Shown here one piece after another: positions 20,476 through 63,056 of a stretch of DNA of 64,000 nt. The position numbers were made by a program, and so were the translations under genes. The stretch's first letter is position 1; every line of letters begins with the position of its first letter. Origin of the DNA: Isurus oxyrinchus. Lineage: Eukaryota. The DNA lies in the NCBI GenBank assembly GCA_026770705.1, contig JANJGN010000002.1:26102001-26166000 (forward strand). Direction: 5' to 3'. The notes beneath the pieces were generated by a model. It was not told the origin of the DNA and ran no database searches. It worked only from the letters and a program-made list of their open reading frames with translations.

Positions 20476-21739
20476 CTGTTGATAATGAGAAATAACAATC
20501 ATCATTCCTTGTTCACAAACAACCCAGAACTCTTCCAGCAACTTTATGGCAGGTCACGTTTCACATCACTCCACACGGCAATCACGTAACTGGATCTTGT
20601 TCTCAGCTGCCTGCAATGAAAAACTAAATGTGCCAATATTGATCAAAAATATAGTCTGTAGAATGAAGCTAACAGCATAGAGTATTACTCAATACACATA
20701 CAGGACCACTCAATCAGCATGTGAAGGCAGCAAATCCAGCAAAGTTTTCCTCACTAACATCTGGGGACCAGGGCCAATGATGGGGCAGCTGTTAGTCAAA
20801 CAACACCCTTATCTGGTCATACTCTACTGCACAATGGCTCAACACTAGACTCCATTACCATCCCTGGCCTGCCAGTAGGACAAATCAACTAGTGCAGTCA
20901 TACTGTATTCAACTGGACTCAGGGGAGTTCTCAACATTGACTATAGACCCCTTGAAATTTCATCTTCTCATCAAATATGGGCAAGAAAACATATTACAGA
21001 TTACCATCTATCAACCTCTCTCAGTTGATGAATCAGTAACCCTCCATGTTGAACACCACTTGGAAGATGCACTGAGGGTATGAATGATATGTCATATGTG
21101 CTCTGAGTGGGAAACTTCAATGTTCATCACTGACTGACAGACTTGGTTTTACCATCAGTTACTGATTCGGCCAAGTCCTGAAATGCATAGCCGTCGGACT
21201 GGGCTTGCAGCAGATGGTCAGAGAACCAACTCAAGGGAATAACCCACTGCTCTTATCCATATAACACTAATCGAAGTGACCATCATGAAGTCCAACTCCC
21301 ATCCTTATACTGAACACACCCTCTATTGCGCCTGTTGGCACTAGCACTGTGGTAAGTGGGTTCAAATTTAAGTTCAGATCTAGGTGCTCAAAACCAGGTA
21401 TACATGAGGCACTGAAGGACATGAGCAGCAGCAGAATTGATAATCACCACACTATATAACCTCCTAGCCTAGCATATCTCACAGTCCTCTGTCAACATGA
21501 AGCCAGGCGCCAGTGTTCCAGTACAGCTAAAAGACTGCTATTTGACTGTTGATGTGGAAAATTACCCAAATATGTTCTGTCTACAAACAGAATAATATCA
21601 ACCTGGGAAATTATAATTCTCAACTCAGAATTCCCCTCTAAATTACACACCATCCTGACTTGGACATATATCACTGTTTCAAAAACAGAATTACCTGGAA
21701 AAACTCAGCAGGTCTGGCAGCATCGGCGGAGAAGAAAAG

Positions 21740-21778
21740 AGTTGACGTTTCGAGTCCTCATGACCCTTCGACAGAACT
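21740..21778 (-). ncRNA. Minimal type I hammerhead ribozyme motif, variant core CUGUCGA
   Basis: AGUU-CUGUCGA-A-GGGUC(AUGAG)GACUC-GAA-ACGU-C-AACU. Stem I is 4 bp, stem II is 5 bp, and stem III is the palindrome ACGU. Predicted cleavage is after GUC (21744). Activity untested. Confidence 0.7.
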
Positions 21779-21784
21779 TGCCAT

Positions 21785-24220
21785 ATGAACACACTCGACC
21801 TCTCCCTCCAGCAGCACCGCCATACCCTTTTTCAAAGCTGCGCGTGCCCCCAGTTTCATTTTATCCTTCGGCTCATCCGACGCCTCAACAAGAAACTTTT
21901 TCTCTTTCTCTCAACTGCTAAGGAACGCAAGCTCCAACAACTCATCGACACCAACACCCATCTAGGACCCTCCACCCCAGCCTGTCCCTCCGTCCCCACC
22001 CCATCTTCCAATCCCAGCCCCAGCCGTGTATTCACTATACCCCCTGACCTTCCCCTCTCCGATGCTGAACGTTCAGTGCTCAGCAAAGGACTTAGTTTCA
22101 TACCCTTACGCCCTCACCTCAATGAATTTCGGGCTCGGCATGATACTGAACTCTTCTTTCGCCGTCTTCGTCTCCGGGCTCACTTCTTTGGGCAGGAGTC
22201 CTCTCCCAGTTCAACGGATCCTTTTACCCATCTCCAATATTCTCCCTCCACCTGGACCCCTCCCTCTGGATTCTTACCTTCTCTTGATCTTTTCATTGAG
22301 AACTGCCGGCGCGACATTAGTCGTCTCAATTTCTCTGCTCCTCTCACCCATTCTAACCTGTCTCTCTCTGAACTTACTGCACTCCATTCTCTCAGGTCCA
22401 ACCCTGACATTGTCATCAAACCCGCTGACAAGGGTGGTGCTGTTGTTGTCTGGCGCACTGACCTCTACCTCGCGGAGGCTGAGCGTCAACTCGCAGACAC
22501 TTCCTCCTACCTCTCCCTGGACCATGACCCCACCACTGAACATCAAGCCATTGTTTCCAGGACTGTCACTGACCTCATCTCCTCTGGGGATCTCCCTCCC
22601 ACAGCTTCCAACCTGATAGTCGCCCAACCTCGGACGGCCCGCTTCTATCTCCTACCCAAAATCCACAAACAGAACTGCCCCGGTAGACTGATCGTCTCAG
22701 CTTGCTCCTGCCCCACAGAACTCATTTCTCGTTATCTTGACTCCCTTCTCTCTCCCCTTGTCCAGTCCCTTCCCACCTACATCCGTGATTCCTCTGACAC
22801 CTTACGTCACATCAACAATTTCCAGTTCCCTGGCTCCAACCGCTTCCTCTTCACCATGGACGTCCAATCCCTCTACACCTCCATCCCCCACCAGGATGGT
22901 CTGAGGGCCCTTAGCTTCTTCCTCGAACAGAGGCCCGAACAATCCCCATCCACCACTACTCTCCTCCGTCTGGCTGAACTTGTTCTCACGTTGAACAATT
23001 TCTCCTTCAACTCCTCTCACTTTCTCCAAATAAAAGGTGTGGCTATGGGTACCCACATGGGCCCCAGCTATGCCTGTCTCTTTATGGGGTATGTGGAACA
23101 TTCCTTGTTGCAGTCCTACCCCGGCCCCCTTCCACAACTTTTTCTCCGGTACATCGATGATTACTTCGGTGCCGCTTCATGCTCTCGTCGGGACTTGGAA
23201 AAATTTATTAATTTTGCTTCCAATCTCCACCCCTCCATCATTTTCACGTGGTCCATCTCTGACACTTCCCTTCCCTTCCTTGACCTCTCTGTCTCAATCT
23301 CTGGTGATAGACTGTCCACCAATATCCATTACAAACCCACCGACTCCCACAGCTACCTCGACTACAGCTCCTCACACCCCGCTTCCTGTAAGGACTCCAT
23401 CCCATTCTCCCAGTTCCTTCGCCTTCGTCGCATCTGTTCCGATGATGCTACCTTCAAAAACGGTTCCTCTGACATGTCCTCCTTCTTCCTTAACCGAGGT
23501 TTTCCACCGACGGTCGTTGACAGGGCCCTCAACCGTGTCCGGCCCATCTCCCGCGCATCCGCCCTCACGCCTTCTCCTCCCTCCCAGAAACATGATAGGG
23601 TCCCCCTTGTCCTCACTTATCACCCCACCAGCCTCCGCATTCAAAGGATCATCCTCCGTCATTTCCGCCAACTCCAGCATGATGCCACCACCAAACACAT
23701 CTTCCCTTCACCCTCCTTATCGGCATTCCGTAGGGATCGCTCCCTCCGGGACACCCTGGTCCACTCCTCCATCACCCCCTACTCCTCAACCCCCTCCTAT
23801 GGCACCACCCCATGCCCACGCAAAAGATGTAACACCTGCCCCTTCACTTCCTCTCTCCTCACCGTCCAAGGGCCCAAACACTCCTTTCAAGTGAAGCAGC
23901 ATTTCACTTGCATTTCCCCCAACTTAGTCTACTGCATTCGTTGCTCCCAATGTGGTCTCCTCTACATTGGAGAGACCAAACGTAAACTGGGCGACCGCTT
24001 TGCAGAACACCTGCGGTCTGTCCGCAAGAATGACCCAAACCTCCCTGTCGCTTGCCATTTTAACACTCCACCCTGCTCTCTTGCCCACATGTCTGTCCTT
24101 GGCTTACTGCATTGTTCCAGTGAAGCCCAACGCAAACTGGAGGAACAACACCTCATCTTCCGACTAGGCACCTTACAGCCTTCCGGTCTGAATATTGAAT
24201 TCAATAACTTTAGGTCGTGA
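21785..24220 (+). CDS. PLE reverse transcriptase + GIY-YIG endonuclease, 811 codons open, probably N-terminally truncated
   Basis: RT motifs IKPADKG, LPKIHK, TMDVQSLYTSI, GVAMG, RYIDD, FLD; Cys linker CPRKRCNTC; GIY-YIG motif NLVYCIRC..C...YIGET...RFAEH. Confidence 0.93.
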   Translation: MNTLDLSLQQHRHTLFQSCACPQFHFILRLIRRLNKKLFLFLSTAKERKLQQLIDTNTHLGPSTPACPSVPTPSSNPSPSRVFTIPPDLPLSDAERSVLSKGLSFIPLRPHLNEFRARHDTELFFRRLRLRAHFFGQESSPSSTDPFTHLQYSPSTWTPPSGFLPSLDLFIENCRRDISRLNFSAPLTHSNLSLSELTALHSLRSNPDIVIKPADKGGAVVVWRTDLYLAEAERQLADTSSYLSLDHDPTTEHQAIVSRTVTDLISSGDLPPTASNLIVAQPRTARFYLLPKIHKQNCPGRLIVSACSCPTELISRYLDSLLSPLVQSLPTYIRDSSDTLRHINNFQFPGSNRFLFTMDVQSLYTSIPHQDGLRALSFFLEQRPEQSPSTTTLLRLAELVLTLNNFSFNSSHFLQIKGVAMGTHMGPSYACLFMGYVEHSLLQSYPGPLPQLFLRYIDDYFGAASCSRRDLEKFINFASNLHPSIIFTWSISDTSLPFLDLSVSISGDRLSTNIHYKPTDSHSYLDYSSSHPASCKDSIPFSQFLRLRRICSDDATFKNGSSDMSSFFLNRGFPPTVVDRALNRVRPISRASALTPSPPSQKHDRVPLVLTYHPTSLRIQRIILRHFRQLQHDATTKHIFPSPSLSAFRRDRSLRDTLVHSSITPYSSTPSYGTTPCPRKRCNTCPFTSSLLTVQGPKHSFQVKQHFTCISPNLVYCIRCSQCGLLYIGETKRKLGDRFAEHLRSVRKNDPNLPVACHFNTPPCSLAHMSVLGLLHCSSEAQRKLEEQHLIFRLGTLQPSGLNIEFNNFRS

Positions 24221-25139
24221 GCTCCCTCCCCCATCCCCACCCCCTTTCTGTTTCCCCCTTTTTTTCCCCTTTTTTTTTCCCTATAAATTTTATAGATTTT
24301 TCTTTTCCCACCTATTTCCATTATTTTTAAATATTTTAAAATCTTTTATGCTCCCCCCACCCCCACTAGAGCTGTACCTTGAGTGCCCTACCATCCATTC
24401 TTAATTAGCACATTCGTTTAGATAATATCACCAACTTTAACTTTAACACCTATGTGTTCTTTTGTACCATTGTCACTGACATCTTTTGATGATCTGCTTC
24501 TATCACTGCTTGTTTGTCTACACAAGCACCTCTGTCTCTCACTCTCTCTCCGCCCCCCCCACACACACACCTTAAACCAGCTTATATTTCAACTCTTTCT
24601 TGGACTCGAAATCAAGTTCTGTCTTTTAAAATATATCACTGTTTGTTCATCATCACTGGACCAAAATTCTGAAACTCGCACCCTAAGAGTATTTTGGGAG
24701 CATATTCACAATACAGAATGCAGTTGTTCAGAAAGATGGCCAGCATCAACTTTTCAGGTTGATAATGCTGATGCTGCCAGCAATCCTCACATATCAGAAA
24801 TAAATAACTTGTTTTAAAATGTATTTCACATTATTTGTTTATTAAATGAAATGTCTTCCTGTTGGAGACAGCAAACGCCTGAGGTGTTTGTCCCTGGAGC
24901 AGGATCTGGAGGCCGGTCAGCTATGTCTCAATTTCTCATCGTGGACTCAAGTCAAGATCAAATGATTGACTAAGATGGTGCCAGTACCACCTGAGCATTC
25001 CCATTCCAGGACAGTTTAAAAGCCACAAGTACCAGTCTTCAACACATCCCCATCCACTTTAGCAGAGCTTAATTATTTGGCCAACCTCCCCATTTGGCTC
25101 TAACACTGACAGCCATGTCTTAATCCATCTGGATACCAC

Positions 25140-28671: not shown

Positions 28672-30403
28672 GAAAAGCAGATTACTGTGGGATGCTGGAA
28701 CCCAAAATATAAAACAGAAAATGCTAAAAATACTCAGCAGGTCAGGCAGCATCTGTGAAGAGAGAAACTTAATGGCCCAGCTCTTCCAGTCTCCGGATGG
28801 CTGTACCCCAGAAGATCTGCTGGGGGACCTCTCGGAAGTCCCAACGCAAGGACTTCACGGGAATTGCCCAGGGAGTTTCAACTTTTGATGGACAATTCCC
28901 CTCCGCCTGGAGCCCTCCAAAAAACTCGAACTCTGAATTAGAATCAGAGGCTTCGGAGTGTTCCATAGTTACCCAGGAAATGTTAGACAGGAAAAAAACA
29001 CATCAACCTCCTGGGTAACTATACAACTGACGCCCCAGACTCCCCTCTGAACCCTGAACCCTCCCCACCAACTCCCATCCTGACCCTCCGATTTTTCCCC
29101 CACCAACCCTCTGACTCCATCCCAACCTAATCACCCTACCCACCCTGCCCAGTTGACACCCTACCATTCTACCCACATACCTCACTCACATTAATTCACT
29201 AACACAGTGAAAAGCTATTTAAATGTCCCAAAGCTTTTCACTACATTAGTGAATAAAGATTTACCAAAATACAGCAACTAGTGCCGTAAAAGAAGGAGCA
29301 TAACTTGGTTTCGTCTGACAATCCTGCCCAACGAAGGACGACTCCCAGAACAGGTATGCTCCGCATTTCTGAAGAAGTCCTGGCCTGAAATGTGGATCTC
29401 TGGTGCGGTGTAAACAAAAAAAGGAGCGGCGTGGCAATCCTTGTGATTGCCAGTCCTTGGAATATTCAGCCCAATGTTTCAGGTCTGTGACCTTTCATCA
29501 GAACTGGGAAAAAGTTAGAAACGTAATAGGTTCGGAGCAAGGGGTGGGTGGGATAAGGACAAAAGTGATAGGTGAAAATTAGGCAGGATTGAACGACAGA
29601 ACAGTTAGTCTTACAGGGCCAAAGGGATTGTTTCTTTTTTTGCACCATAGTCAAAGAAACAAAAGATGTGCCTTGAGCAGGCTTGCTGCTGTCAGGAAAC
29701 GGAAATAAGAGCAAAACAGAAACATGCAGAGAAAAGGAAACAAAAATAGGGGCTAAGGTTACAGCCTGAAATTACTGAATTCACTGATGTGTCTAGAAGT
29801 CTGTAAAGTGCCTAATTAAAAGGAGAGGTGCTGTTCCTCAAACTTGTGTTGAGCCTCACCGGGACAGTGCAACTGGCCGAGGATAGAGATGTCAGTGTGA
29901 TTGCAAGGCAGAGAATTAAAATCACAGGGCACCAGAAGCTTGGGGTAAGGTTTGCAGACTGAACAGAGGTGTTACGCAGTCACGCAATCTGTGTTTAGTC
30001 TCCCCAATGTTGCAGTTGTGGAAGGATGCATCATCAGAACAGATGCAAAAGAGATAGAGAAACTGGGAGAACGGAATGTAATCCTTACAAGACTTCAAGT
30101 AGGAGGGAGTGTACAGTTCACTGTGGGAGTTAAGTGGGTTTATAATATTAGTTTATAGACTATGACCAGAAATGGAGACAAAAAAGTCAAGGAAGGAAGG
30201 AGTCAGAGATGGACTAGAGAAAAGTAGAAATTGGAAGTAAAAGTTGATGAAGCTTTCCAATTCAGGGCAAGAGCAGGACAGGGCACCGTTATATTCATAA
30301 TTTCTAACCTTTCCCAGTTCTTATGAAAGGTCACAGCCCTGAAATGTTAACACTGTTTGTCTCTCTACAGATGCTGCTGAGTATTTCCAGCATTTTAACT
30401 TGT
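28672..30403 (-). mobile_element. Older PLE insertion with inverted 3' ends (minus arm 28672-~30295, plus arm ~30300-30403)
   Basis: PLE terminal sequence at both ends facing outward, GIY-YIG remnants near 29770-30010, hammerhead remnants at 29473-29505 (minus, CUGAUGA) and 30316-30351 (plus, decayed). Flanks are TGCAGTT(T)CTT on both sides. Confidence 0.75.
28774..29472. mobile_element. Harbinger-like non-autonomous TIR element nested in the PLE terminus
   Basis: Degenerate TIRs GGCCCAGCTCTTCC / GGAATATTCAGCCC with TSD AAT (28771-28773, 29473-29475). The PLE sequence resumes after it. Confidence 0.65.
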
Positions 30404-31358: not shown

Positions 31359-32528
31359 AGCATGCAGAGTTTCCCAAATAAAACCCATCTGAGAAGCACT
31401 GACTTGGCCTTTGGCCTAAGACCTTGCTGATGGAAAAAGTAAAAAGACGTTGTTGTGTTTGTCCTGATGAATATAAGACAAAAATCTTCAGCAACATATC
31501 TCTCTTTTCAGCAAACAAAAAAGAAATAAAAAAACGTCAGTATATTGTGACACCAGAGAATTAACTGGGATTGATTTTATGCACATAATTTGTATTTTGT
31601 CACTACCTGCCACTCACTGTACTTTGCTGGAGAGATAATTCTGCTTTTATCAGGCAAGTTTCAGTCATGGAGTTCTGTTTGCTGTCATTGTTTTCGGATT
31701 CCATCTAAATATAGTCCATTTTCCATAGTGTGCAGAAACTCTGTTTTAAATAGACTGTTAGCTGCAAGTCCTGACCCCACCAACCCAACAACTGACATAA
31801 TGGCATCATTACTCACTCAGATATTTAAAAAAAAAAATCAGAGTACAGGTTGTTCTCACATCTCATAACACACTTTTACACTGGAGAAATGCTGATACCA
31901 TTGGAGTTATGATACTTGTGCTACCGACAGCCTTTAAAGGACCCAATGGTGCCAGAGAAATGCTGTTCAGGACTCTATTTACCTCTAACGCACAGTCAAA
32001 TAACCTCCATCTTACAACTATGAGAACTGCACCTCTGCGACCTCCAGCATGCCTCGATTAACAACACCAGCTAAAGTAAACGAGGAAAATTACATAGAGG
32101 TTGAGCACTTCTGTTTCAGGATCTATTAAAAGAATAAAGTGCCAAAACAGCAGTTACAGGCTTAGGCCACCTATCTGGGTTGTTGCTTGTGGAATGTTAT
32201 ATGATAAATGGGCCATTAGAGAAAAGAGAAAATAAAACAGGAATTAAAAAAAGAGACACAGAAAAAAGTGCACTGCGTAATTCTAACTAACTTGCTTAGC
32301 TATTGCAAAGATGAGAAAATCACCTTTAAATCCCTTTAAAAAGCAGTAAAATTCACATCAGGAAATTCTTAACTGCAAACCATTAAAATCATAATTTGAA
32401 AATAAAGCCAATGTTAGCAGATAAGAGGCCCACAAAATATTCATTTGTCTACTACTTTAATGCAAGCATTCATCCATTTAAAGATCACTTGGTAGTACAG
32501 AACTTGAATAATGCTGAAAGGGGACATG

Positions 32529-32564
32529 TTGTCGAAGGTTTTCACTTTGCACTCATCAGGACAA
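32529..32564 (-). ncRNA. Minimal type I hammerhead ribozyme motif
   Basis: UUGUC-CUGAUGA-GUGCAAAGU-GAAA-ACCU-UC-GACAA. Canonical core and intact 5-bp stem I; stems II and III are decayed. Confidence 0.65.
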
Positions 32565-33001
32565 ATGCAAGAATACCAAATTTCAAACGGTCACGATAAT
32601 TTATACCAATAGAAAAATGGCGGTGCTGATTGGTTGGCAAGTCAACTCAGATTGGTCGAGGCATCGCTATAGAGAAAGCAAGAATAAACTATAGGCTCCC
32701 CATTCTTCCAGGCAGTTGAAAACAGGTGCAAGGTTTGAACAATTTTTTTTGTTTGCAGAGAATGGGTTCCGGTGTATGAATGTGTCACTTCTAAAAAGCA
32801 TAAATTAGCCACATTACGAGCTTGACCGAATATCTTAAATTGGTTAAGTGTAGCTATTAGTGTAGGGAGCCGAGAGTTCCCTGTTATTTTCTCTATGACA
32901 ATGCCTTGGCCAATCAAGAGTCAAGCTGCCAACCAATCAGCAGCCATTTTTTTCCTGTAGTATAAATTCTTGTGACCGTTTGAAATTTAGTATTCTTGCA
33001 T

Positions 33002-33037
33002 TTGTCCTGATGAGTGCAAAATGAAAAGCTTCGGAAA
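33002..33037 (+). ncRNA. Minimal type I hammerhead ribozyme motif
   Basis: UUGUC-CUGAUGA-GUGCAAAAU-GAA-AAGCUU-C-GGAAA. Canonical core and palindromic stem III AAGCUU; the stem I 3' strand is decayed. Confidence 0.65.
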
Positions 33038-33435
33038 CACACATCTCCTTTCAGCAATAATCAAGATTTAAATGGATTAGTGCCTCCACTTAACAGCAAG
33101 GATGTAACCACGGTAAACATTTATGTACCAATATAATAAAGCGTACTTCTATAGCCCATAGTTATGGCTCTACATTTCTCCGAGATGTATAAGTATAGTT
33201 TTACGAGTATTTTTCTGCTGAACAGCTATTAAACACAAATATTTTGCAAATCAATTAAGGTTTTTGCAGGTGTATGTTTGGTCTTAAAGGCAGACATCTG
33301 CTCTTTTGTTTCACTGGACCACTGAAAATGTGTTGCAATAAAGTTTAAACCACAGTTACAGACTTTGTGCCATGTATGCATTCCACAACAGGGTAGCAAC
33401 ATACATCAAAACAGCAACTTCTGACAGACACTTTA

Positions 33436-35789: not shown

Positions 35790-37365
35790 GGCTAGACATT
35801 TCAGAATAACTGCTCCAGGACAGTGGAAGAAGGCAAGGCCAGAAAATCATGAACAGCTCCAACAAACAGTAACCCCTCTGAAATTTGTGCCAAGCTTTCC
35901 TGGAACTCCATGTTTGAATCCCTTCAATCAGGTTTCTGACCCTACTGCAAAATGGAACGGCCCTTATCAAAGTCACAAATGACATCCGATATGATGGAGA
36001 CAATGGTAGACAAATCCTTCCTTGTTCTTCTCCATTCCCCTGCAGCCTTTGACATGGTTGACCACACCATCCTCCTCCAATGACTCTCCACCATCATCCA
36101 ACTGGGTGGGACTGCACTTGTCTGATTTCATTCTTACGAGAGAACCACCCGCAATAATTTCTCTTCCCCTTCCCACACTGTTATCTCTGATGTCCCCCAA
36201 GGATCAATCCTTGGTTCCTCCCATTTCTGAATCTGTCCCTCAGCAACACCATGTAAAAACACTTCATCAATTTTCACAGCTACCACATCATCATCTCTCT
36301 AAACCCCTTCACTATCTCTAAATTATCTCACTGCTTGTTCAACATCCAGTACTGGATTGGATGAAACTTCCTCCATGTGAATACTGGGAAAACCAAAGCC
36401 ACTGCCTTGGGTTCCCAAAACAAACTGCTCCCTAGCCACCAACTCCATCCCTCGCTTTGGCAATGGTCTGAGGCTCAACCAGGCTGTTTGCAATCTTAAC
36501 TCTGAAAATTGTACTTAACCCCGAAATGAGCCACATCCATGCCATAACACTGCCTATCTTTAGAGTTAACATTTCGAGTCTTTATGATTCTTCAGAGTTC
36601 TGAAGAAGCATCATGAGAACTCGAAATGTTAACTTTTTTTCTCTCCACAGATGCTGATAGACCTGCTGAGCTTTTCCAGCATTTTCTGTTTATGTTTCAG
36701 ATTTTCAGCATCTGCAGTTTTTTGCTTTTAGCTACCTATTTCTACCTCTGTGACATCATCTGACTCTGCCCCTGCTTATCTGCTGCTGAAACCCTCACCC
36801 ATGTCATTGTTCCTCTAGAATTGTCTACGCTAATGCACTTCTGGCTGACCTCCCACTTTCCACTCTTTGCAAATTTGAAGTCATCCAAAACTCTGCTGCC
36901 CATGTGCAACTAGCATCAAGTCCCTTTCACCCATCACTTCTATGCATAGTGACCTATACTGGCTCCGGTTAAATAACTCCTCAATTTTAACATTCTCAAC
37001 CTTGTTTTCAGCTCAGTCCATGGCTTGAACCTTCCCTTTATTTGTACCTCCTCAAGCACTACAACTCTCCAAATATCTGCTCATCCTGGACACTCATGCA
37101 TGCACAGTTTTAACTGCTCCACCACTGGTGCCTATGCCTTTCGCTGCCAAGGCCCTAATTCCCTCCACCTCTATTTGCTTCTTTGAGATCCTCCTTAAAA
37201 CCTATATCAAAGTGACAAAGCTTTTGGTCATCTGTCTTAATATCTCCTTATGTGATTCTGTGTCCAATTTTGTTTGATAATGCCCGTGAAGCACCTTGAA
37301 ACATTCTGTTAGCTTAAAGGTGTTCTACCTTAAAGATGCTATACAAATACGAGTTGTGGTTGTTT
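35790..37365 (+). mobile_element. Degenerate L2 LINE, RT to 3' end
   Basis: Remnants of FQSGF, AFDMVDHTILL, VPQGSILG and IQNSAA, plus an L2 3' tail (GCTATACAAATACGAGTTGTGGTTG). Confidence 0.8.
36561..36731 (+). mobile_element. ~170-bp PLE terminal fragment with back-to-back hammerhead cores, inserted in L2
   Basis: Palindrome 36563-36634 with CTGAAGA on both strands (36600-36606 plus, 36589-36595 minus), followed by the PLE tail CCACAGATGCTG..AGACCTGCTGAG. Approximate TSD CTGCCTATCT/CTACCTATTT. Confidence 0.75.
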
Positions 37366-41915: not shown

Positions 41916-42154
41916 TAACAAAAACAAAAATAAAAATACCTGGAAAAATTTAGCAGGTCTGACAGCATCTGCGGAGAGGAATACCGTTAACGTTTCGAGT
42001 CCGTATGACTCTTCAACAGAACATACAACAGTCATACAGACTCAAAACGTTAACGGTATTCCTCTCCACAGATGCTGTCAGACCTGCGGAGTATTTCCAG
42101 GTATTTTTATTTTTGCTTTTGTTTTGGATTTCCAGCATCCGCAGTTTTTTGCTT
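41916..42154. mobile_element. 239-bp palindromic PLE-terminus element with hammerhead (CUGUUGA core)
   Basis: 11-bp TSD TTACAGAAAAG (41905-41915, 42155-42165) and ~90-bp inverted arms. Minus-strand motif at 41985-42023: UGUU-CUGUUGA-A-GAGUC(AUACG)GACUC-GAA-ACGU-U-AACG. Confidence 0.85.
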
Positions 42155-42272
42155 TTACAGAAAAGGAACGCCATTCACCCTACCCATCCAGACTGAACCA
42201 AAGATGAAACAGAGTGGTGAGTTCCAGTCCCTGTGATCCTTACACCACTGAGTTCTTAAAGTCAGACACATG

Positions 42273-49378: not shown

Positions 49379-49585
49379 GTGAGCAGCCCTTTCAAAGAGC
49401 ACGTCCCTCCCAGGTGATTTAGGCTTCTTTCTACTCTGCAAAAAATTGTGAGCACCCCTTTCAAAGAGCACGTCCCTCCCAGGTGATTTAGGCTTCTTTC
49501 TACTCTGCAAAAAATTGTGAGCACCCCTTTCAAAGAGCACCTCCCTCCCAGGTGAATTAGGCTTCTTTCTACTCTGCAAAAAATT
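49379..49585. repeat. Tandem repeat, 3 x 69 bp, near-identical units
   Basis: Units start at 49379, 49448 and 49517: GTGAGCASCCCTTTCAAAGAGCACSTCCCTCCCAGGTGAWTTAGGCTTCTTTCTACTCTGCAAAAAATT. Confidence 0.95.
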
Positions 49586-50959: not shown

Positions 50960-52830
50960 TACTTACATTTACAAGTTATAAATCTCAAGCTTAGCAAAAT
51001 AAAGGATAAATGTTTGACCAATATTGGGGAAATGCATAATGTTCACGGTATACGGGGTAAATATTGGCATGGAAGATTGGCAGGCTAACAGGAAGCAGAG
51101 ACTAGACATAAATGAGTCTTTCAGGTTGGGAAGATGTAACAAGTGGTGTGGCACAGGGATCAGTGGTGTGGTCTCAACTTTCAAAAATGACTTGGATGAA
51201 GGGATGGATGGGATGGTTGCCAAATTTTCTGATGACACAAAGATAGGAAGGAAGGTAAGTTGTGAAGAGGACATAAGCAGGCTACAAAAAGATATAGATA
51301 GGTTAAATGAGTCGACAAAGATCAGGCAAATTGAGTATAACGTGGGAAAATGTGAAAATGTCCATTTTAGCAGGAAATAAAAGAAAGTATCTAAGTGGGG
51401 AGAGATTGCAGAGCTCTGAGGTGCAGAGGGATCTGGGTGTTCTAGCACATGAATCACAAAATGATGTATGCAAGTACAGCAAGTAATTAGGAAAGCTAAT
51501 AGAATTATTATTTATTACAAGGGGAATTGAATACAAAATTAGGGAGGTTATGCTTCAGTTGCACAGGGCACTAGTGAAACCACCTTTGGAGTACTGTGTA
51601 CAGTATGGGTCACCTTATTTAAGGAAGGATGTAAGTGAGTTGGAAGCAGTTCCGAGAAGGTTTACCAGACTATTGCCTGGAACAGGTGGGTTATCTTATG
51701 AGGAAAGGTTGGACAGACTAGGCTTGTATCTGTTGGAGTTTAGAAGAATAAGAGGTAACTTGATTGAAACATATAGGGCAGAATTTTTGGATTAGGGAGT
51801 GGGCACAATCGGCGGGCCTGGGGATCGGCCAGGGAACAGACCGCCTGACTGTGATTTCACACTGGTTGGCCAATTAATGGCCAGCCAGCGTGAAACGTGC
51901 ACTGAGAAGCTCAGCATTGCCGGGGTGGGAGTGGGGCTGGGAAGAGGGCAGGCGCTGATGTCAACGTGGGCACGGGCCAGCGCTGAGAGAAAGCTCCCTG
52001 AAGGCAGAGAGGTGTCTCAGGGAGCTGCAGACCCGAAAATCCTCAAATAAAGTTTTGAAAAGCAGGAAAGAAATGTCTAAGCATCCCAGTCAGGCACCTG
52101 AAAATATACATGATAAAATACTGTCCACTGATTTTTTATTTTCATTGTATTTCATCACAGAAATCTCATCCCGCCCTTAGATGAGGTTTCATTAAAAATG
52201 CAAAGGCCATCTAGCCAATTCACCAATCTGTCAACTATAAGGTTAGTTGGGCAACGTAAAATTAAAGACAATTGCGCCATTAATGACCTTATTTGGTCTC
52301 TTAATTGTTGGTGGACACGCTTCCGACTTTTGCGTGTGCCCAGCAACCAAAATATAGCGTGAGCACGGTATGAAGTCAGGACACTCGCCCGATGTCATCT
52401 CATGTGATTTCACATCAGATCAGGTTGGACGTGCGCCCGCCCGATCAGTGTAAAATTCTGCCCTTAAGATCCTGAGGGCTCTTGACAGGGTGGATGGGGA
52501 GAGGATGTTTCTTCTTTTGGAAGAATCTAGGACTAGGGGTCACTGTCTAAAAATAAAGGTCGCTCATTTAAAACAGAGATGAGGCAAATTTTTTTCACTC
52601 AGAATGTCATGAGTCTTTGGAACTCTCTTCCTGAAAAGGTGGTGGAAGCAGAGCCTTTGAATATTTTTAAGGCTGAAGTGGATAGATTCTAGGTAAGCAA
52701 GGGGCTGATAGCTTATTGGGGTTAGGTTGGATGAAGTTTTCATGTTACAATCTGATCAGCTATGATCTCATTAAATGGCAGAGTAGGCTTGAGGGCCTGA
52801 ATGGCCTACTCCTGCTCCTTGTTTGTACAT
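50960..52830 (+). mobile_element. 5'-truncated CR1 LINE interrupted by a MITE
   Basis: KFSDDTKIG...LQKDIDRL; LVKPPLEYCVQ. CR1 3' tail at ~52770-52830. Confidence 0.88.
51776..52463 (+). mobile_element. Harbinger-type MITE, copy 4
   Basis: TIRs GGGCAGAATTTT / AAAATTCTGCCC with flanks ATA/TTA. CR1 sequence (GAAACAT|AAGATCCTGAGG) is continuous across it. Confidence 0.85.
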
Positions 52831-53134: not shown

Positions 53135-53730
53135 TTAAAACAAAGAATACTGGAAACACTTGGCAGGTAAGGCAGCATCTGTGGAGAGAGAAACAGAGTT
53201 AATATTTCAGATCATTGGCCTTTTATCAGAACTAGAAAATGCTAGAGATGTAAAAGGTTTTAATTAAATACAGAGGTGGGAGAGGGAGAAGATCAAAAGG
53301 GAAGGTCTGTGATACTGTGGAAAGCAGGAGAGATTAAATGATGAAAGAGGTGACAGTGCAAGGTGAAAAGGGATGGTAACAAGTAAATAAACAAAATATG
53401 GGTTTAGAGGAGGTGTAAATAGAAGAGCAGAATCACTACCAACAGTTTCTGTCCAAAGGGAAATGGGGACAGAGTTTGTGATCTGAAATAGTTGAATTCA
53501 TTGTTGTATCCAGAAGGTTGTAAAGTGCCTAATCAAAATATGAGGTGCTGTACCCAGAGTTTACACTGAGTTTCATTGGAACAGTGCAGGAGGCCAAGGG
53601 CAGGGAGGTCAGAGTGGGAGTGCAGCAGAGAATTAAAATGACAGGCTTACCTGTGTTCGGGTGACACTTGCGGACTGAAGGGAGGTGTTCTGCAAAGTCG
53701 TCACCTAAGTTACATTTAGTCTCCCCAGGT
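53135..53730 (-). mobile_element. Old PLE, minus arm (3' terminus and GIY-YIG remnant)
   Basis: PLE tail GGCAGCATCTGTGGAGAGAGAAACAGAGTTAA with a decayed hammerhead. ORF remnant GETKCNLGDDFAEHLPSV. Confidence 0.8.
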
Positions 53731-55019
53731 CCACCAGTATCCAGGTCCAATAGCCAACAATATATTAGCTAGACAAGGAATCAATGAATTATTTGCAAAA
53801 TTTGATGCAGTTTTAAAATCATTTGATGCTTATTTTAATCTCAGAAGTAACAAAATCCTTGAAAGGACTAAATTTAATAAACAGGTCCAGCAGCCAGGAG
53901 AACCTGTCGGTTCCTTCACTAATTAACCATACAGAATGGCTGAAGACTGTGATTATGATGACCTGAAATCTGTGCTAATTAGGGATAGAATAGTTGTAGG
54001 AGAGGCAGCTGACAGACATGCTTCAAATGAAGGAAGATCTAGCCTTTGAGAAAGCCATCCAGATTGTCAGGCAATCTGAAATCCATTTGCAGTACAAATC
54101 CATATTAAGGGGAGGAACAAACCACGGTACAAAGTAAACACCACTGTTCAGTTAGTGAAACAGCACTGAAACAGGGACACTCCATGCCAAGGGGTGCAAT
54201 GTGGAGAAAAGTGTCCCCATCAATGTCCAGCAATTTCAGTCCAATGCTTTCAACTTAACCTCATAGGACACTTCGGGAAGCTGTGCAAAACCAAAATGCA
54301 CAACCCTCCAAAAAGGATTCACGAGGTTGAGACAGCACACCAAGAGGACACATAACAATGCTTCTTGGGTGAGGTCAAAGATACTGGATTTTCATTCTGG
54401 AATGCAAACATCTCAGCTGATGGCCACTCACAAACTTTAAGTTGGATATGGGAGCCAGTGTTATGTCCTATCAGGCAAAAAGAAACTGTAGCTGAGGGAC
54501 CTCTGGTTATGAACAACAGACACACCACTCTACGGGCCAGGAGGAATCTGACTTCCGGTCACAGGCATGACTCTGGAACCACTAAGGTATGGAGGCAAAC
54601 AAATTGAGCTGGTGTACGTCATCCGTAATCAGTCATTTTCTCTCTTGAGCAGATATGCCTGTGTATCCCTGAATCTTCTCAAAATGACAGAAGATGTCAA
54701 GACAACTGCTGTTGTAAATTATATGGAACTGCAAGTTCCCGAGAGCTCCAACAAGAAAGATTCTCTTGAATTGTCTTCTCTTTTTGCAGAACTCGTTAGT
54801 CATTACAGGTGGCAAAAGCCTCTCCTTGGTCAGACCAGCCAACAACTCATATGGTTACCACAGCACCTTGAGTAGATGACAGTCAAGAGACGAACCAGCA
54901 ATGAGAAGAGCCTCAACCTCCAGTTCCAATGCCAGTTGGAGAGATAAACCCTGAGACCACAGGGCAGACACTACAATCCCCAGCCAGCACGCTGGAACCA
55001 ATTAGCAGCCATCCATTGA

Positions 55020-56455
55020 CGACAGGTTCTGAATAAGTCCCAAAGGATTGGAAAACTGCCAATGTAACACCATTATTCAAAAAGGAGGGGAGACAAAAAA
55101 CAGTTAACATCCGTCATTGGGAAAATGTTAGAGTCAATTATAAAGGATGTAATTGCAGAGCATTTAAAAATGCATGATATAATCAAGCAGAGTCAGCATG
55201 GCTTCATGAAAGGGAAACCATGCTTGACAAATTTATTAGAATTCTTCCAGGAAGTAACAAGCAGCATAGATAAAGGGGAACCAGTAGATGTAATGTATTT
55301 GGATTTCCAAAAGGCATTCGATATACACATAAGGCTATTTAATAAGATAAGAGCCCATGGTGTTGGAGGTAGTATATTAGCATGGATAGAGGATTGGATA
55401 ACTAATAGAAGACAGAGAGTGGGATAAGGTGGGATAATTGCATTTTCAGGATGGCAACCAGGGATGCCACAGGGATCAGTGCTAGGGCCACAATTATTTA
55501 TAATATATATTAATGACTTAGATAAGGGACGTGAATGTACTATTGCCAAGTTTGTGGATGACACAAAAATAGGTGGGAAGGCAAGTGGTGAGATGACACA
55601 AAGAGTCTACAGAGGGATATAGACGGATTAAGTGAGTGGGCAAAAACTTGGCAGATGGTATATAATGTGGGAAAATGAGGTTATGCACTTTGGCAGAAAG
55701 AATAGAGGACCTGAATATTACTTAAAGGGAGAAAGACTGAAGAAAGCTGCAGCACAGAGGGATTTGGGGGTCCTGGTGCGTGAATCACAAAAAGCTAGCT
55801 TACAAGCTTAGCAGGTTATAGACAAGGCAAATGGAATGGAATGTAAAACTAGGGAAGTCTTGCTAAAACTATATAAGGCACTAGTTAGACCACACCTAGA
55901 ACACTGTGAACAGCTTTGGTCCTCTTATCTAAGTAAAGATATGCTGGCATTGGAGGCAGTTCAGAGAAGGTTCAGTAGATTGATCCCGGGTATGGAGGGA
56001 TTTTCTTATGAGAGAGGTTGAGTAGGTTGGGCCTGTACTCATTGGAGTTTAGAAGAATGAGAGGCAACCTTATTGAAACATGTAAGATTCTTACGGGGCT
56101 TGACAGGTTAGATGCTGAGAGTTATTTCCCCTTATGGGAGAGTCTAGAACCAGAGGGCATAATCTCAGAGTAACAGGTCGCCCATTTAAGACAGAGATGA
56201 AGAAGAATTTCTTCTCCCAGAAGGTGGTGAATCTATGGAACCCTCTACCGCAGAGGGCTGTAGCGACTGTGTCGTTAAGTATATTCAAGGCTGAGATAGA
56301 CAGATTTTTAATCAGTAAGGGAATCAAGGGCTATGAGGAAAAGGCAGGAAAGTGAAGTTGAGGATTATTAGATCAGCCATGATCTCATTGAAACAGACTC
56401 AATGGGCCGAATGGCCTACTTCTGCACCTATGTCTTATGGTCTTATGGTCTTTAT
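55020..56455 (+). mobile_element. 5'-truncated CR1 LINE nested in the Gypsy remnant
   Basis: SQHGFMKGKPCLTNLLEFF...YLDFQKAFD; PQGSVLGP; RGHNLRV. Tail (TCTTATGG)n. Confidence 0.92.
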
Positions 56456-56956
56456 GGACAGCACACCACACAGCCAAAAGCAAAGGTGAGCTTACAACCA
56501 AGTCACAACCTCACAACAGGAAGAGCCATCTTCCATCCCAGCATGCATCATGACGAGCCACACAAAGGAAGAAGAGAAAAAGACACTATAGAGATGAGCC
56601 CAGAGTTCATCCATCCTGTAAAGAGTGGGATAAACCAATCACCATCAATCACTACAACTGGGGAATTGACAAAGAGCAATTCAGTGCCAAAGAATGGAAA
56701 AGGGGTATGAAGGCACCCAGATGCCAGAACAAGCTTCAATTCAACAAAGTTTACCTGCAATGACAGAGCCTGATGTGATCCCACAGATGGGAGAGCAAGA
56801 TATGGAATGGTTATAAGGCCACCAGACTGCCTGAACCTATGAACTCAGAGACTTGAGGGAGGGGGGAGATGGGGTAGTAATAATGATGCAATTCATGGGG
56901 GTAAAATGTAAAAACTGCAAACTTGTAAATACATTGCCATCCACACAGTGATGTAA

Positions 56957-57099
56957 CTCTTTTGAGTACAAACATGTTTCTATCTGTTCCTATTCAGATG
57001 AAATTACATTGTTTCATAATTTGCTATGGTGAGATTTGAACTCTTCATCTTGGGGTTACAAGCCCACTACCATAACCACTTGGCTATCATACCAGAACA
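56957..57099 (-). mobile_element. 143-bp tRNA-Thr-like SINE inserted in the LTR
   Basis: 16-bp TSD CCACACAGTGATGTAA (56941-56956, 57100-57115). A box TAGCCAAGTGG, B box GTTCAAATC, anticodon-like loop CTTGTAA. Confidence 0.85.
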
Positions 57100-57319
57100 C
57101 CACACAGTGATGTAAGAGAACATTTGACCCACACCTAGGGGTCAGTGTAGTGTTGGACAGAGCCATATGTAGAAGCAAGCATGGAGATAACTCCTAGCTT
57201 AGACCTTTACCGTACCTATGTATATGGTTTCTAGTAATTATGAATACTTACTGTTGAACTACTGAAGACAATGAGTACCTTAATAAGACCTACTAAACTA
57301 TGCCCAACACTTTACAACA

Positions 57320-57525
57320 GGTTTATCTTTTGTATCTTTATTTTTACCTCCTTTTGCCTCCACATCATCCCTTTTGCCATTCAACTTCCCCTGTCTGAAG
57401 TCAGGGACCCGAAAGATTAACTCTATTTCTTCCTCTACCGATGCTGCCTGACCTGCTGAGTACTTCCAGCACTTTCTGCTTTTATTTCAGATTACCAGCA
57501 CCCGCAATAGTTTGCTTTTGTTTGT
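57320..57525 (+). mobile_element. Old PLE terminus, plus arm (likely partner of 53135-53730)
   Basis: Decayed hammerhead CTGAAG...GACCCGAAAGATTAACTC followed by GATGCTGCCTGACCTGCTGAGTACTTCCAGCA. Confidence 0.7.
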
Positions 57526-58291: not shown

Positions 58292-58374
58292 TACAAGAAG
58301 CAGGATTTGAACTTACATGCTCATCCACCCACTGGATCTAGAGTCCAATGCCTCACCCATTTAGCCATGTCATT
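58292..58374 (-). pseudogene. Degenerate tRNA-Leu-like sequence (pseudogene or SINE head)
   Basis: TGGCTAAATGGGTGAGGCATTGGACTCTAGATCCAGTGG...GTTCAAATCC resembles tRNA-Leu(UAA) with a long variable arm. The acceptor stem is largely unpaired. Confidence 0.5.
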
Positions 58375-58982
58375 GTTTTGTTTTTAATTTTGATGTGACT
58401 GTTCAATCCTATAGTGACTATCCTGAGTAAATAAGTGACTTGATGTTTTCCTTAAATAGCTGGTCCAAGGAGACACATAATGCTGCCTCAGTTCTGCTGA
58501 TCAGTTATGCTGATTCCCCAAGCAATGGACCTGTCATTTCCTCACAGAATCAGAATCACAGTGCAGAAGAGGCCCTTCGGCCTATCGAGTCTGCACCGAC
58601 ACCTGAGAAACACCTGACCTACCTACCTAATCCCGTTTACCAGCACTTGACGCGTAGCCTTGAATGTTATGATGTGCCAAGTGCTCATCCAGGTACTTTT
58701 TAAAGGATGTGAGGCAACCTGCCTCCACCACCCTCCCAAGCAGCACATTCCAGACCATCACCACCCTCTGGGTAAAAGATTTTTTCCTCACATCCCCCCT
58801 AAACCTCCTGCCCCTCACCTTGAACTTATGCCCCCTTGTGATGGACCCTTCAACTAAGGGGAACAGCTGCTCCCTATCCAATAATAAAAACAAAGAAAAC
58901 TGTGGATGCTGGAAATCCAAAACAAAAACAGAATTACCTGGAAAAACTCAGCAGGTCTGGCAGCATCGGCGGAGAAGAAAAG

Positions 58983-59021
58983 AGTTGACGTTTCGAGTCC
59001 TCATGACCCTTCGACAGAACT
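58983..59021 (-). ncRNA. Minimal hammerhead motif (CUGUCGA core)
   Basis: Identical to the motif at 21740-21778. Confidence 0.7.
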
Positions 59022-60928
59022 TGATTTCGAGTCCAAGAAAGAGTTGAAATATAAGCTGGTTTAAGGTGTGTGTGTGTGGGGGGGTGGAGAGATAGAGAGA
59101 GAGGTGGTTGTGTAGACAAACAAGCAGTGATAGAAGCAGATCATCAAAAGATGTCAGCGACAATGGTACAAAAGAACACATAGGTGTTAAAGTTAAAGTT
59201 GGTGATATTATCTAAACGAATGTGCTAGTTAAGAATGGATGGTAGGGCACTCAAGGTACAGCTCTAGTGGGGGTGGGGGGAGCATAAAAGATTTTAAAAT
59301 ATTTAAAAATAATGGAAATAGGTGGGAAAAGAAAAATCTATAAAATTTATAGGGGAAAAAAAGGAAAAAGGGGGGAAAAACAGAAAGGGGGTGGGGATGG
59401 GGGAGGGAGCTCACGACCTAAAGTTGTTGAATTCAATATTCAGACCGGAAGGCTGTAAGGTGCCTAGTCGGAAGATGAGGTGTTGTTCCTCCAGTTTGCG
59501 TTGGGCTTCACTGGAACAATGCAGTAAGCCAAGGACAGACATGTGGGCAAGAGAGCAGGGTGGAGTGTTAAAATGGCAAGCGACAGGGAGGTTTGGGTCA
59601 TTCTTGCGGACAGACCGCAGGTGTTCTGCAAAGCGGTCGCCCAGTTTACGTTTGGTCTCTCCAATGTAGAGGAGACCACATTGGGAGCAACGAATGCAGT
59701 AGACTAAGTTGGGGGAAATGCAAGTGAAATGCTGCTTCACTTGAAAGGAGTGTTTGGGCCCTTGGATGGTGAGGAGAGAGGAAGTGAAGGGGCAGGTGTT
59801 ACATCTTTTGCGTGGGCATTGGGTGGTGCCATAGGAGGGGGTTGAGGAGTAGGGGGTGATGGAGGAGTGGACCAGGGTGTCCCGGAGGGAGCGATCCCTA
59901 CGGAATGCCGATAAGGGGGGTGAAGGGGAGATGTGTTTGGTGGTGGCATCATGCTGGAGTTGGCGGAAATGACGGAGGATGATCCTTTGAATGCGGAGGC
60001 TGGTGGGGTGATAAGTGAGGACAAGGGGGACCCTATCATGTTTCTGGGAGGGAGGAGAAGGCGTGAGGGCTGATGCACGGGAGATGGGCCGGACACGGTT
60101 GAGGGCCCTGTCAACGACCGTCGGTGGAAAACCTCGGTTAAGGAAGAAGGAGGACATGTCAGAGGAACCGTTTTTGAAGGTAGCATCATCGGAACAGATG
60201 CGACGAAGGCGAAGGAACATTTCACTTGCATTTCCCCCAACTTAGTCTACTGCATTCGTTGCTCCCAATGTGGTCTCCTCTACATTGGAGAGACCAAACG
60301 TAAACTGGGCGACCGCTTTGCGGAACACCTGCGGTCTGTCCGCAAGAATGACCCAAACCTCCCTGTCGCTTGCCATTTTAACACTCCACCCTGCTCTCTT
60401 TCCCACATGTCTGTCCTTGGCTTACTGCATTGTTCCAGTGAAGCCCAACGCAAACTGGAGGAACAACACCTCATCTTCTGACTAGGCACCTTACAGCCTT
60501 CCGGTCTGAATATTGAATTCAACAACTTTAGGTCGTGAGCTCCCTCCCCCATCCCCACCCCCTTTCTGTTTTTCCCCCCTTTTTCCTTTTTTTCCCCTAT
60601 AAATTTTATAGATTTTTCTTTTCCCACCTATTTCCATTATTTTTAAATATTTTACAATCTTTTATGCTCCCCCCATCCCCACTAGAGCTGTGCCTTGAGT
60701 GCCCTACCATCCATTCTTAATTAGCACATTCGTTTAGATAATATCACCAACTTTAACTTTAACACCTATGTGTTCTTTTGTACCATTGTCGCTGACATCT
60801 TTTGATGATCTGCTTCTATCACTGCTTGTTTGTCTACACAACCACCTCTCTCTCTCTCTATCTCTCCGCCCCCCCCACACACACACCTTAAACCAGCTTA
60901 TATTTCAACTTTCTTGGACTCGAAATCA

Positions 60929-60967
60929 AGTTCTGTCGAAGGGTCATGAGGACTCGAAACGTCAACT
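60929..60967 (+). ncRNA. Minimal hammerhead motif (CUGUCGA core), sense to kmo pre-mRNA
   Basis: AGTT-CTGTCGA-A-GGGTC-ATGAG-GACTC-GAA-ACGT-C-AACT. Predicted cleavage after 60963. Confidence 0.7.
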
Positions 60968-62509
60968 CTTTTCTTCTCCGCCGATGCTGCCAGACCTGCT
61001 GAGTTTTTCCAGGTAATTCTGCGTTTGCTCCCTATCCACCCTGGCCATGCCCCTCATAATCTTGTACACCTCGATCAGGTCGCCCCTCAGTCTTCTCTGC
61101 TCCAACAAAAACAACCCAAGCCTATCCAACCTCTCTTCATAACTTAAATGTTTCATCCCAGGCAACATCCTGGTGAATTTCCTCTGCACCCCCTCCAGTG
61201 CAATCACATCCTTCCTATAATGTGGTGACCAGAACTGCATACAGTACTCCAGCTGTGGCCTCACCAAGGTTCTATACAATTCCAACATGACCTCCCTACT
61301 TTTGTAATCTATGCCTCGATTGATAAAGGCAAGTGTCCCATATGCCTTTTTCACCACCCCTCCACCTTCAGAGATTTATGGACACACACACCAAGGTCCC
61401 TTTGTTCCTCAGAACTTCCTAGTGTCATGCCCTTCATTGAATATTTCCTTGTCAAATTACTCCTTCCAAAGCATACCACCTCACACTTTTCAGGGTTAAA
61501 TTCCATCTGTTACTTATCTGCCCATTTGACCATCCCATCTATATCTTCCTGTAGCCCAAGACACTCAACCTCACTGTTAACCACCCGGCCTATCTTTGTG
61601 TCATCCGCAAACTTACTAATCATACTCCCAAATAGTCATCTATGTCGTTTATATAAATGGCAAATAATAGGGGACCGAGCACAGATCCCTGTGGTATGCC
61701 ACTGGACACTGGCTTCCAGTCACTAAAGCATCCTTCTATCATCACCCTCTGCCTCCTACAACTAAGCCAATTTTGAATCCACCTTATCAAATTACCCTGT
61801 ATCCCATGTGCCTTTGCCTTCTTTATAAGTCTTCCATGTGGGACCTTGTCAATGGCTTTGCTGAAATCCATATAAACTACATCAATTGCACTATCCTCAT
61901 CTAAACACCTGGTCACCTCAAAAAATTCAATCAAATTTGTTAGGCATAACCTCCCTCTGCCAAAGCCATGCTGACTATCCCTGATCAAATCTTGCCTCTC
62001 CAAGTGGAGTTGGATACTATCCTTCAGAAATTTCTCCAATAGTTTCCCTACCACTGATGTGAGACTCACTGGCCTGTAGTTCCCTGGTTTATCTCTACAA
62101 CCCTTCTTAAATAGTGGAACCACATTAGCTGTTCTCCAGTCCTCTGGCACCTCCCCCGTGGCCAGAGAGGAGTTAAAAATTTGGGTCAGAGCCCCTGCGA
62201 TTTCCTCCCTTGCCTCCCTCATCAGTCTGGACACAAATCATCTGGACCTGGATATTTGTCCACTTTTAAGCCTGTCAACACCTCCAATACCTTGTCACTC
62301 CCTATATCAATTTGCTTAAGAATCTCGCAGTCTCTCTCCCTGAATTCAATACCATCATTCTCATTCTCTTGGGTGAAGACGGACATGAAGTATTTATTCA
62401 ACACTCTAGTGATGTCCTCTGGCTCCACCCATAGATTGCCCCCTTGGTCCCTTATGGGCCCTACTCTTTCCCTGGTTATCCTCTTCCCATTGATATACTT
62501 ACAATATAC

Positions 62510-63056
62510 TTAAAGACTAGGCATTTTACAGCCTTCTGGACTGAATATTCAGTTCAGCAACTTTAGATCATGAACTCTCTCCTCCATCCCCACCCACTTT
62601 CCGATCCTCCTTTTTCCCATAATTTATATATATTTTTCTTTTCGCACCTATTTCCATTATTTTTAAATGTATTTCCATCCATTGTTTTATCTCTACCTTT
62701 TAGCTTATTTTGATCCCTTCCCCCCACCCTACCCCCACTAGACTATGTACCTTGCTTGTCCTGCTTTCTACCCTTAATGTCAGCATTAGCACATTTCTTA
62801 GCTAACATCACCACCATCAACACCTTTTTGTCCTTTTGTCTATGACATCTTTTGCCAATCTCCACCTATCACTGACCCTTTATCTAGCAAAAACTGTCCC
62901 ACCCCCCCCCCCCCCATAACCAGCTTATATTTTACCTCTTTTCTATTTTTCCTTAGCTCTGTTGAAGAGTCATACAGACTTGAAACATTAACTGTATTCC
63001 TCTCTGCAGATGCAATCAGACCTGCTGAGTTTTTCAAGGTATTTTTGTTTTTGTTT
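62510..63056 (+). mobile_element. PLE 3' fragment (CUGUUGA subfamily) within CR1
   Basis: ORF end RLGILQPSGLNIQFSNFRS*, PLE 3' UTR, and a decayed hammerhead at 62955-62993 (CTGTTGAAGAGTCATACAGACTTGAAACATTAAC). The tail matches the 41916-42154 element. Confidence 0.85.

Follow-up and report, generated by a model that had tools for sequence, protein, structure and literature searches.

The ends of Penelope-like element (PLE) copies have been described in several systems. An inverted pseudo-long terminal repeat (pLTR), a tail and a target-site duplication (TSD) were presented as the 'typical Penelope structure', for which self-priming was proposed (PMC3846280), and inverted terminal repeats were reported for the most frequent form in D. 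virilis (PMC2377424). In PMC8557442, the tail at one end was noted and the inverted structures were listed as unexplained. Pairs of hammerhead motifs lying 100-700 bp apart on opposite strands had already been noted in Schistosoma (PMC4209133), and ribozyme roles and retrozymes were addressed in PMC6765202 and bioRxiv 10.64898/2026.07.22.740005. An anole PLE protein, predicted to be a dimer, was found in vitro to nick and extend both strands, starting from two internal sites that delimit the tail, and ribozyme cleavage was not required (PMC11167929). The present analysis deals with a 64,000-nucleotide stretch of Isurus oxyrinchus (assembly GCA_026770705.1, contig JANJGN010000002.1, positions 26,102,001 to 26,166,000 of the forward strand; hereafter the window), and with the relatives of its PLE inserts in the 4.98 Gb of genome searched, genome-wide counts being derived from exact pattern searches. 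It was concluded that the head-to-head inserts of a young PLE family in this DNA, designated family A, were probably made by paired priming, in which two staggered nicks are extended on one RNA.

The layout of such inserts is already published. Pen2a_Av of Adineta vaga (PMC3846280) has the same inverted terminal copy, a tail on one arm (31-bp in that element), a TSD round the insert and junction palindromes. However, its TSDs measure 8-10 bp, against 12-16 bp here, and the available text favours self-priming on an antisense template and gives neither a count of tail pairing nor a run-off hotspot. PAc, a Poseidon element of Anolis carolinensis (PMC11167929), shares with the inserts described here the nicking and extension of two strands and the two start sites bounding the tail, but it belongs to the Penelope/Poseidon clade, whereas the linker of family A is of the Neptune/Nematis type; moreover, in the part of that paper available, two-strand priming is not tied to inverted insertions and no strand difference in start site is given. 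In contrast to the endonuclease-bearing (EN+) PLEs of the Neptune/Nematis type (PMC8557442), the TSDs gave no sign of microsatellite targeting, and the young ribozyme core reads CUGUCGA. No paper on paired priming, the one-tail count or the run-off hotspot of PLEs was found in the literature searched, a search that left aside the 2005/2006 PLE reviews and the supplements, of which that of PMC11167929 may bear on the matter.

Position +1 of the family A numbering used here is the base with which GTTCTGTC begins, and the ribozyme core lies three bases further on. Its largest copy in the window carried an 818-codon open frame (21764-24220, plus strand) encoding a reverse transcriptase (RT) and, C-terminal to it, a GIY-YIG endonuclease (Pfam RVT_1, E 1e-7; GIY-YIG, E 8e-4, the latter below the curated cut-off). 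The motifs DKG (residue 222) and YCIRCSQC...YIG (residue 723) matched the definitions given in PMC8557442, and YIDD was present as well. In that paper, a CX2-5CxxC linker is assigned to the Neptune and Nematis clades. Since the linker between RT and endonuclease reads CX4CX2C (CPRKRCNTC at residue 684), family A is, by its predicted protein, an EN+ PLE with a Neptune/Nematis-type linker. A natural tandem array allowed a 3,340-bp unit with a 926-codon open frame to be derived, and the family displayed the EN+ PLE layout of tandem or partial-tandem copies, an inverted truncated copy, a one-sided tail of 30-40 bp and a TSD. A near-identical triple head-to-tail array at C1:459548-468998 was bounded by a 13-bp TSD and ended at the short site defined below.

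A 31-nt pattern from the young-family arm gave 59,713 exact matches genome-wide. The first 100 of these, all within the first 5.4 Mb of contig C1, a sample that favours young and two-armed copies, resolved into 76 insertions, of which 42 were cleanly head-to-head, 3 were complex with an inversion and 31 were single-strand. When only the 54 TSD-bounded insertions were considered, 40 were cleanly inverted, 1 was complex and 13 were single-armed. The initial annotation had proposed that priming from both target strands was the normal integration route; these counts support it as the main one, alongside other routes represented by the 13 single-armed insertions. The 42 inverted insertions ranged from 178 to 4,442 bp, and 22 of them measured between 178 and 302 bp. 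Among neighbours within 4.5 kb in the first 100 matches, 20 pairs were head-to-head, 4 tail-to-tail and 5 on the same strand, and the signal was weak in an unselected 264 kb round the window (10, 6 and 7, respectively, from 40 family-A ends). Tight hairpins numbered 4,644 genome-wide, against 22 for a reversed control.

One line of evidence for the paired-priming reading lies in the outer ends of the arms, which fell either near +100 (the short site) or near +135 (the tail). Exactly one tail arm was present in 41 of the 42 inverted insertions (binomial p 2e-11 against 0.5). The same rule applied to all 38 classifiable hairpins among 44 examined from 50 listed of the 4,644, after 3 without a TSD and 3 with a mis-called TSD had been dropped (up to 8 overlap the 42 insertions), and to all 15 TSD-bounded members of 17 further hairpins that carried the commonest junction. 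The sole tail/tail insertion, C1:3919192-3920460, held about 110 nt of other DNA in its junction, and its long arm jumped to ribozyme helix II at a short match. Each of the two sites can prime alone, since 7 of the 13 TSD-bounded single-armed insertions ended at the short site and 6 at the tail. In the predicted fold, the short site lies in a U-rich loop after the inner helix and the tail site after the outer helix. TSDs of inverted insertions measured 12-16 bp, with 14 bp in 22 of 40, and both nicks showed the same bias towards T at +2, +3 and +7 of the target (61, 65 and 64 of 126, with p <= 1e-6), position +1 being excluded since it is distorted by boundary calling. At C1:5206307, a young arm adjoins the tail end of an older-subfamily copy, which suggests an insertion into the tail of the earlier copy.

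These observations are consistent with a sequence of events that would begin with two nicks, one in each target strand and about 14 nt from each other, made by the element protein, which probably acts as a dimer. Both nicks would prime complementary DNA (cDNA) synthesis on a single shared RNA. Of the two start points, the tail site (about +135) would serve one cDNA and the short site (about +100) its partner; both sites are located in U-rich sequence next to a predicted nested stem-loop. Joining of the cDNA 3' ends and filling of the gaps would follow, generating the TSD. If synthesis of both copies continued as far as a fixed stop immediately 5' of the ribozyme (-3..+1), the result would be a hairpin of about 180-275 bp, and if only one nick primed on the RNA, a single-armed insertion would be left. 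Twin priming is known from LINE-1 (long interspersed nuclear element 1), in which both target strands prime on RNA and an inversion is formed. There it occurs in a minority of insertions, the second site is internal and varies in position, and the arms do not overlap. In the present family, in contrast, the positions of both sites are fixed, the arms have sequence in common and inverted insertions predominate. It may further be proposed that twin priming is programmed as the main route of the family, with a dimer that loads two RTs at fixed and mutually exclusive sites of a single RNA stem-loop, and with a 14-nt stagger, so that the tail, the inverted pLTR and the thousands of strong-stop-like hairpins would come from one mechanism while the ribozyme no longer cuts; we consider the chances of this proposal evenly balanced.

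The proposed stop was reflected in the inner ends of the arms, 30 of 84 of which fell at -8..+3. With patterns of equal format, genome-wide hairpin centres numbered 2,549 at -3..+1, compared with 29 at about -16, 82 at about +18 and 106 at the predicted ribozyme cut site (+35). The predicted cut site is thus not a hotspot of hairpin centres; among 50 listed near it, 6 were blunt at the cut and 22 were loop-less joins through the ACGT palindrome, in which the arms must cross the cut site. A TATA-like TTATATTT (24582-24589) precedes a CA at -3/-2 by 31 nt, and this spacing suggests transcription start as the stop, so that -3..+1 would possibly correspond to the RNA 5' end. An insertion at C1:250760609-250761362 contained an internal repeat in its short arm, as if the RT had hit -2, re-primed at about +65 and run off.

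The relation between the two arms was informative regarding their source. The non-tail arm reached further in than the tail arm by >10 nt in 16 of 41 insertions, by up to about 3.2 kb, and by >50 nt in 11 of 41 (one of them without a TSD). Since a fold-back product has to be contained in the arm from which it was copied, and only the tail arm holds the tail, the non-tail arm would not be such a product in these cases. The insertion at 21680-24630 (insertion 1) lacked +9..+98 of its left arm on the right side, with its TSD nonetheless intact. The lengths of long arms were correlated (rho 0.71, n 14). Over 70 pairs, 21 non-CpG variants were common to both arms of an insertion, where 1.05 were expected (2,000 permutations, maximum 6), and six of the 21 occurred in no other insertion. 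CpG decay was mostly private to one arm (27 versus 4), which argues against wholesale conversion between arms. For 8 of 10 long pairs, no other arm was closer than the partner arm. Taken with the exclusion between start sites and the similar lengths, the shared variants suggest that one RNA was copied twice.

Several observations weigh against paired priming on one RNA. The bias towards a longer non-tail arm was weak, since the tail arm reached further in in 9 of 41 (one of these, C1:4346494, being a mis-call with the right inner end near -168), against the 16 given above, and the length correlation fell to rho 0.31 (p 0.21, n 18) once long-plus-short pairs were added. Later central deletion of palindromes is common, and such trimming of perfect hairpins would also give correlated lengths with either arm longer. 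Two long insertions had near-perfect centres. The shared variants show that both arms came from one source locus, which need not mean a single molecule. About a fifth of the non-tail arms ended inside the short site (7 of 42 insertions and 9 of 38 hairpins), so that extra start sites or trimming are needed. The bias of the C1 sample belongs here as well. Concerning the stop, an older second family, family B, has TATAAAT about 31 nt upstream of CA, and its hairpins numbered 0, 6 and 6 in three windows, with no peak at the TATA-predicted site, although exact patterns are weak on an old family; the transcription-start reading is not supported for family B. The stretch was represented in 23 sequencing runs, as assembled contigs only and mostly from runs only guessed to be RNA, and in the contigs of 4 runs no start, end, strand or splice was readable.

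As an alternative, the inverted structures might be accounted for by a tail-primed cDNA that snaps back and copies itself, the endonuclease resolving the product at the short site and the centre being sometimes deleted later. Junction palindromes have been read in print as products of self-priming (PMC3846280), and endonuclease resolution has been put forward as the source of the tail (PMC8557442); such a process would directly explain the one-tail rule, the shared variants and the equal lengths. The insertion at 58881-61025 fits it fully, with a longer tail arm and an 8-nt junction overlap (6 of 8 matching), as do the 25 of 41 cases in which the tail arm is at least the length of its partner. 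However, a later one-sided deletion would be required in the remaining 16 of 41, even in young, near-identical copies (no arm difference in 1,097 columns), and neither insertion 1 nor the 7 TSD-bounded single-armed insertions at the short site can be made in this manner. In addition, long junctions were mostly blunt or had a few extra bases, with an overlap of >=3 nt in only 1 of 21, and loop-less centres were common. Fold-back was considered unlikely for these reasons. If the two nicks were instead extended on two separate RNAs from one source locus, as an RNA dimer, two enzymes would not need to work on the same stretch, and the shared variants would be expected too; minimal PLE hammerheads are indeed thought to pair as dimers (PMC4209133). 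This arrangement by itself, however, explains neither why the arms never take the same site nor why the long arms have similar endpoints, and we regard it as improbable, less so only than the family of copied hairpins discussed next.

The abundance of the small hairpins raised the question of whether they are a non-autonomous family, like miniature inverted-repeat transposable elements (MITEs) or retrozymes, copied from master hairpins. Besides the 4,644 hairpins themselves, one perfect 54-nt centre was present in 235 exact copies, and non-autonomous PLE derivatives are known (PMC8557442; bioRxiv 10.64898/2026.07.22.740005). The retrozymes of the latter source are likewise short, non-coding, derived from PLEs and hammerhead-bearing, but they form head-to-tail tandem units with complete ribozymes, whereas the hairpins found here are head-to-head, dispersed and remade with each insertion. 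A double hairpin within one 14-bp TSD (C3:61988100-61989200) consisted of a tail arm, a junction, about 50 nt, a mirror centre, about 50 nt, an identical junction and a short arm. Its two identical junctions could arise from a copied hairpin-bearing RNA; the structure is either a twin-primed hairpin-bearing RNA, that is, an occasional re-copying, or an inverted triplication in DNA. Against descent from masters, 28 junction strings were found among the 50 listed hairpins, the commonest in only 7, instead of a fixed MITE-type unit with one junction. The commonest junction was found with five tail-sequence classes, whose proportions could not be told apart from those in other hairpins and long copies (p 0.26), the asymmetric TTGAA junction occurred with the tail on either side and in different sublineages, a sublineage marked by a variant at +21 had five different junctions, and the outer ends of the hairpins varied. 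Because one junction appears in several sublineages and in both polarities, its recurrence is attributed to the fixed run-off point, and because shared junctions cut across sublineages, the small hairpins appear to be remade each time. Furthermore, 8 of the 235 copies were spread, as one minimal hairpin, across a 15-bp satellite array (C3:11409001-11429000), a cluster that was rejected as a case of self-spread since it was apparently carried by satellite amplification or turnover. The hairpins are non-tandem and have neither a reading frame nor the upstream TATA-like region, which makes each of them a likely dead end. A self-spreading hairpin class, as put forward in the initial annotation, was accordingly judged very improbable. 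That annotation had also held that a unique junction in every short copy would speak for one-off products; junctions do recur, but from a fixed run-off point, and the idea of a new element class fails.

By eye, about 14 hammerhead-like remnants could be recognised in the window, where about a dozen had been counted earlier, but none passed a strict descriptor with the canonical CUGANGA core of hammerheads. With CUGNNGA, 4 were found (shuffle mean 0.1), and with one substitution allowed 8 (shuffle mean 0.57), two of which look like chance; an Rfam search of the window detected no hammerhead at E up to 5. The 4 copies had a helix II of 5 bp, a helix I of 4 bp, GAAA, a UH cut site and an extra base after position 9. 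The extra base between position 9 and helix II and the palindromic minimal helix III are shared with the minimal PLE hammerheads of PMC4209133, which differ from the young family in that position 6 of its predicted cores is U. The young core, CUGUCGA (A6U; for example at 21747-21777, 58990-59020 and 60930-60960), is non-canonical, and U stood at position 6 in 113 of 123 sampled young cores, the sample having been selected on the CUGUCGA sequence itself. Some older copies and family B keep CUGAUGA or CUGAAGA, yet are decayed elsewhere. In hammerheads, A6U would be a damaging change; our literature search turned up no paper on its effect. The description of the hairpins as ribozyme-tipped could not be maintained, given this core and the position of the ribozymes, which in small hairpins lie at the centre.

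The inserts of the window are real truncated PLE copies of two families and several ages (Table 1). The three clean TSDs claimed earlier proved exact at 21680-24630 (14 bp), 41916-42154 (11 bp) and 58881-61025 (13 bp). Paralogous host repeats held the flanks with the duplication present once: for 58881, all 5 adjacent pairs overlapped by 13, and for 21680 both of the 2 pairs by 14. No paralogous empty site was found for 41916-42154. An outward-facing architecture had been attributed to seven insertions, two of which do not fit it. It was clear at 28672-30403, 32489-33065, 41916-42154 and 58881-61025, but not at 36561-36731, where the left arm is so short, nor at insertion 1, whose right side stops 8 nt into the ribozyme without a 3' terminus and is followed by 7 extra nt (24624-24630). 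The stretch 53135-57525 is not demonstrated as one insertion, because no TSD was found (best match 7/10) and ~3.6 kb of Gypsy-like, LINE and tRNA-like DNA lies between its arms.

Table 1. Coordinates of PLE-derived features in the window (unit positions refer to family A).
Feature	Position	Strand	Remarks
Insertion 1, left TSD	21666..21679		14 bp, right copy 24631-24644; exact repeat; single in 2 paralogous empty sites
Insertion 1, short arm (young family A)	21680..21780	-	unit -3..+98; non-tail end; core CUGUCGA
Insertion 1, 5'-truncated PLE body	21781..24623	+	unit 490 to +8, by mapping
Old family-A-type inverted insertion	28672..30403		decayed TSD 10/13
28672-30403, tail arm	28672-28768, resumes about 29462-30296	-	
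28672-30403, nested LINE-like piece	about 28769-29460		about 690 bp
28672-30403, short arm	about 30300-30403	+	
Family B (second, older PLE) inverted insertion	32489..33065		earlier bounds 32513-33055 too narrow
32489-33065, tail arm	32489-32862	-	includes end of endonuclease frame
32489-33065, short arm	32865-33065	+	
Old minimal hairpin	36561..36731		left arm about 37 nt; tail arm on +; decayed TSD 10/13
Minimal hairpin	41916..42154		TSD 41905-41915 / 42155-42165 (11 bp, exact)
41916-42154, non-tail arm	41916-42022	-	ends at +1
41916-42154, tail arm		+	from +14
Old non-tail PLE arm with endonuclease remnant	53135..53727	-	pairing with 57395-57525 unproven
Old tail-type PLE end	57395..57525	+	
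Young inverted insertion	58881..61025		TSD 58868-58880 / 61026-61038 (13 bp, exact); inside LINE-like repeat
58881-61025, tail arm	58881-60218	-	to unit 2123
58881-61025, non-tail arm	60211-61025	+	from unit 2603; arms overlap 8 nt at junction
Older single-armed PLE 3' end, non-tail	62515..63056	+	no TSD found

Family B is old, at about 80% identity. The family A protein gave no match to its insert at 32489-33065, the longer arm of which we take, from our own reading of the alignment, to be the end of a PLE endonuclease. This arm was common to 29 relatives, none of which had its junction. A 171-bp centre with 1,471 candidates was considered as a shared MITE core and rejected, since it corresponds to the coding sequence of the longer arm and its junction is missing from all 29. 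A one-sided extension of ~20 nt was observed by eye in 5 of 8 loci with two opposed ribozyme matches, among 30 examined.

Other repeats were found in the window, the repeat content of which appears to resemble that of a cartilaginous fish. An ~800-bp inverted repeat at 7219-8015, with arms 69% identical and relatives at 52131-52465, is MITE-like and unrelated to the PLEs, and a 69-bp tandem repeat is present three times at 49379-49593 (96% matches). Matches resembling tRNA at 57022-57093 and 58299-58368 fell below the Rfam threshold and are probably heads of short interspersed nuclear elements (SINEs). Decayed fragments at 53730-55100, presumably of Gypsy-like gag/protease type, adjoin a LINE fragment at 55104-56452. 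Further LINE fragments lie at 9448-10875, 46951-48498, 61071-62513 and 63337-63726, with RVT_1 matches and one weak exonuclease/endonuclease match, and a 275-codon open frame at 828-1655 had no Pfam match.

The origin of the inverted ends and of the one-sided tail is a named open problem for PLEs, according to PMC8557442. The value of the present data lies in counts from a very abundant young family, which favour paired priming over self-priming in a form that is directly testable. For a purified system, the predictions are a 14-nt stagger, mutual exclusion of the start sites, arms derived from the same RNA and run-off at a fixed point. Short palindromes, of which the genome holds thousands, would also find in paired priming an explanation that needs no new class of element.

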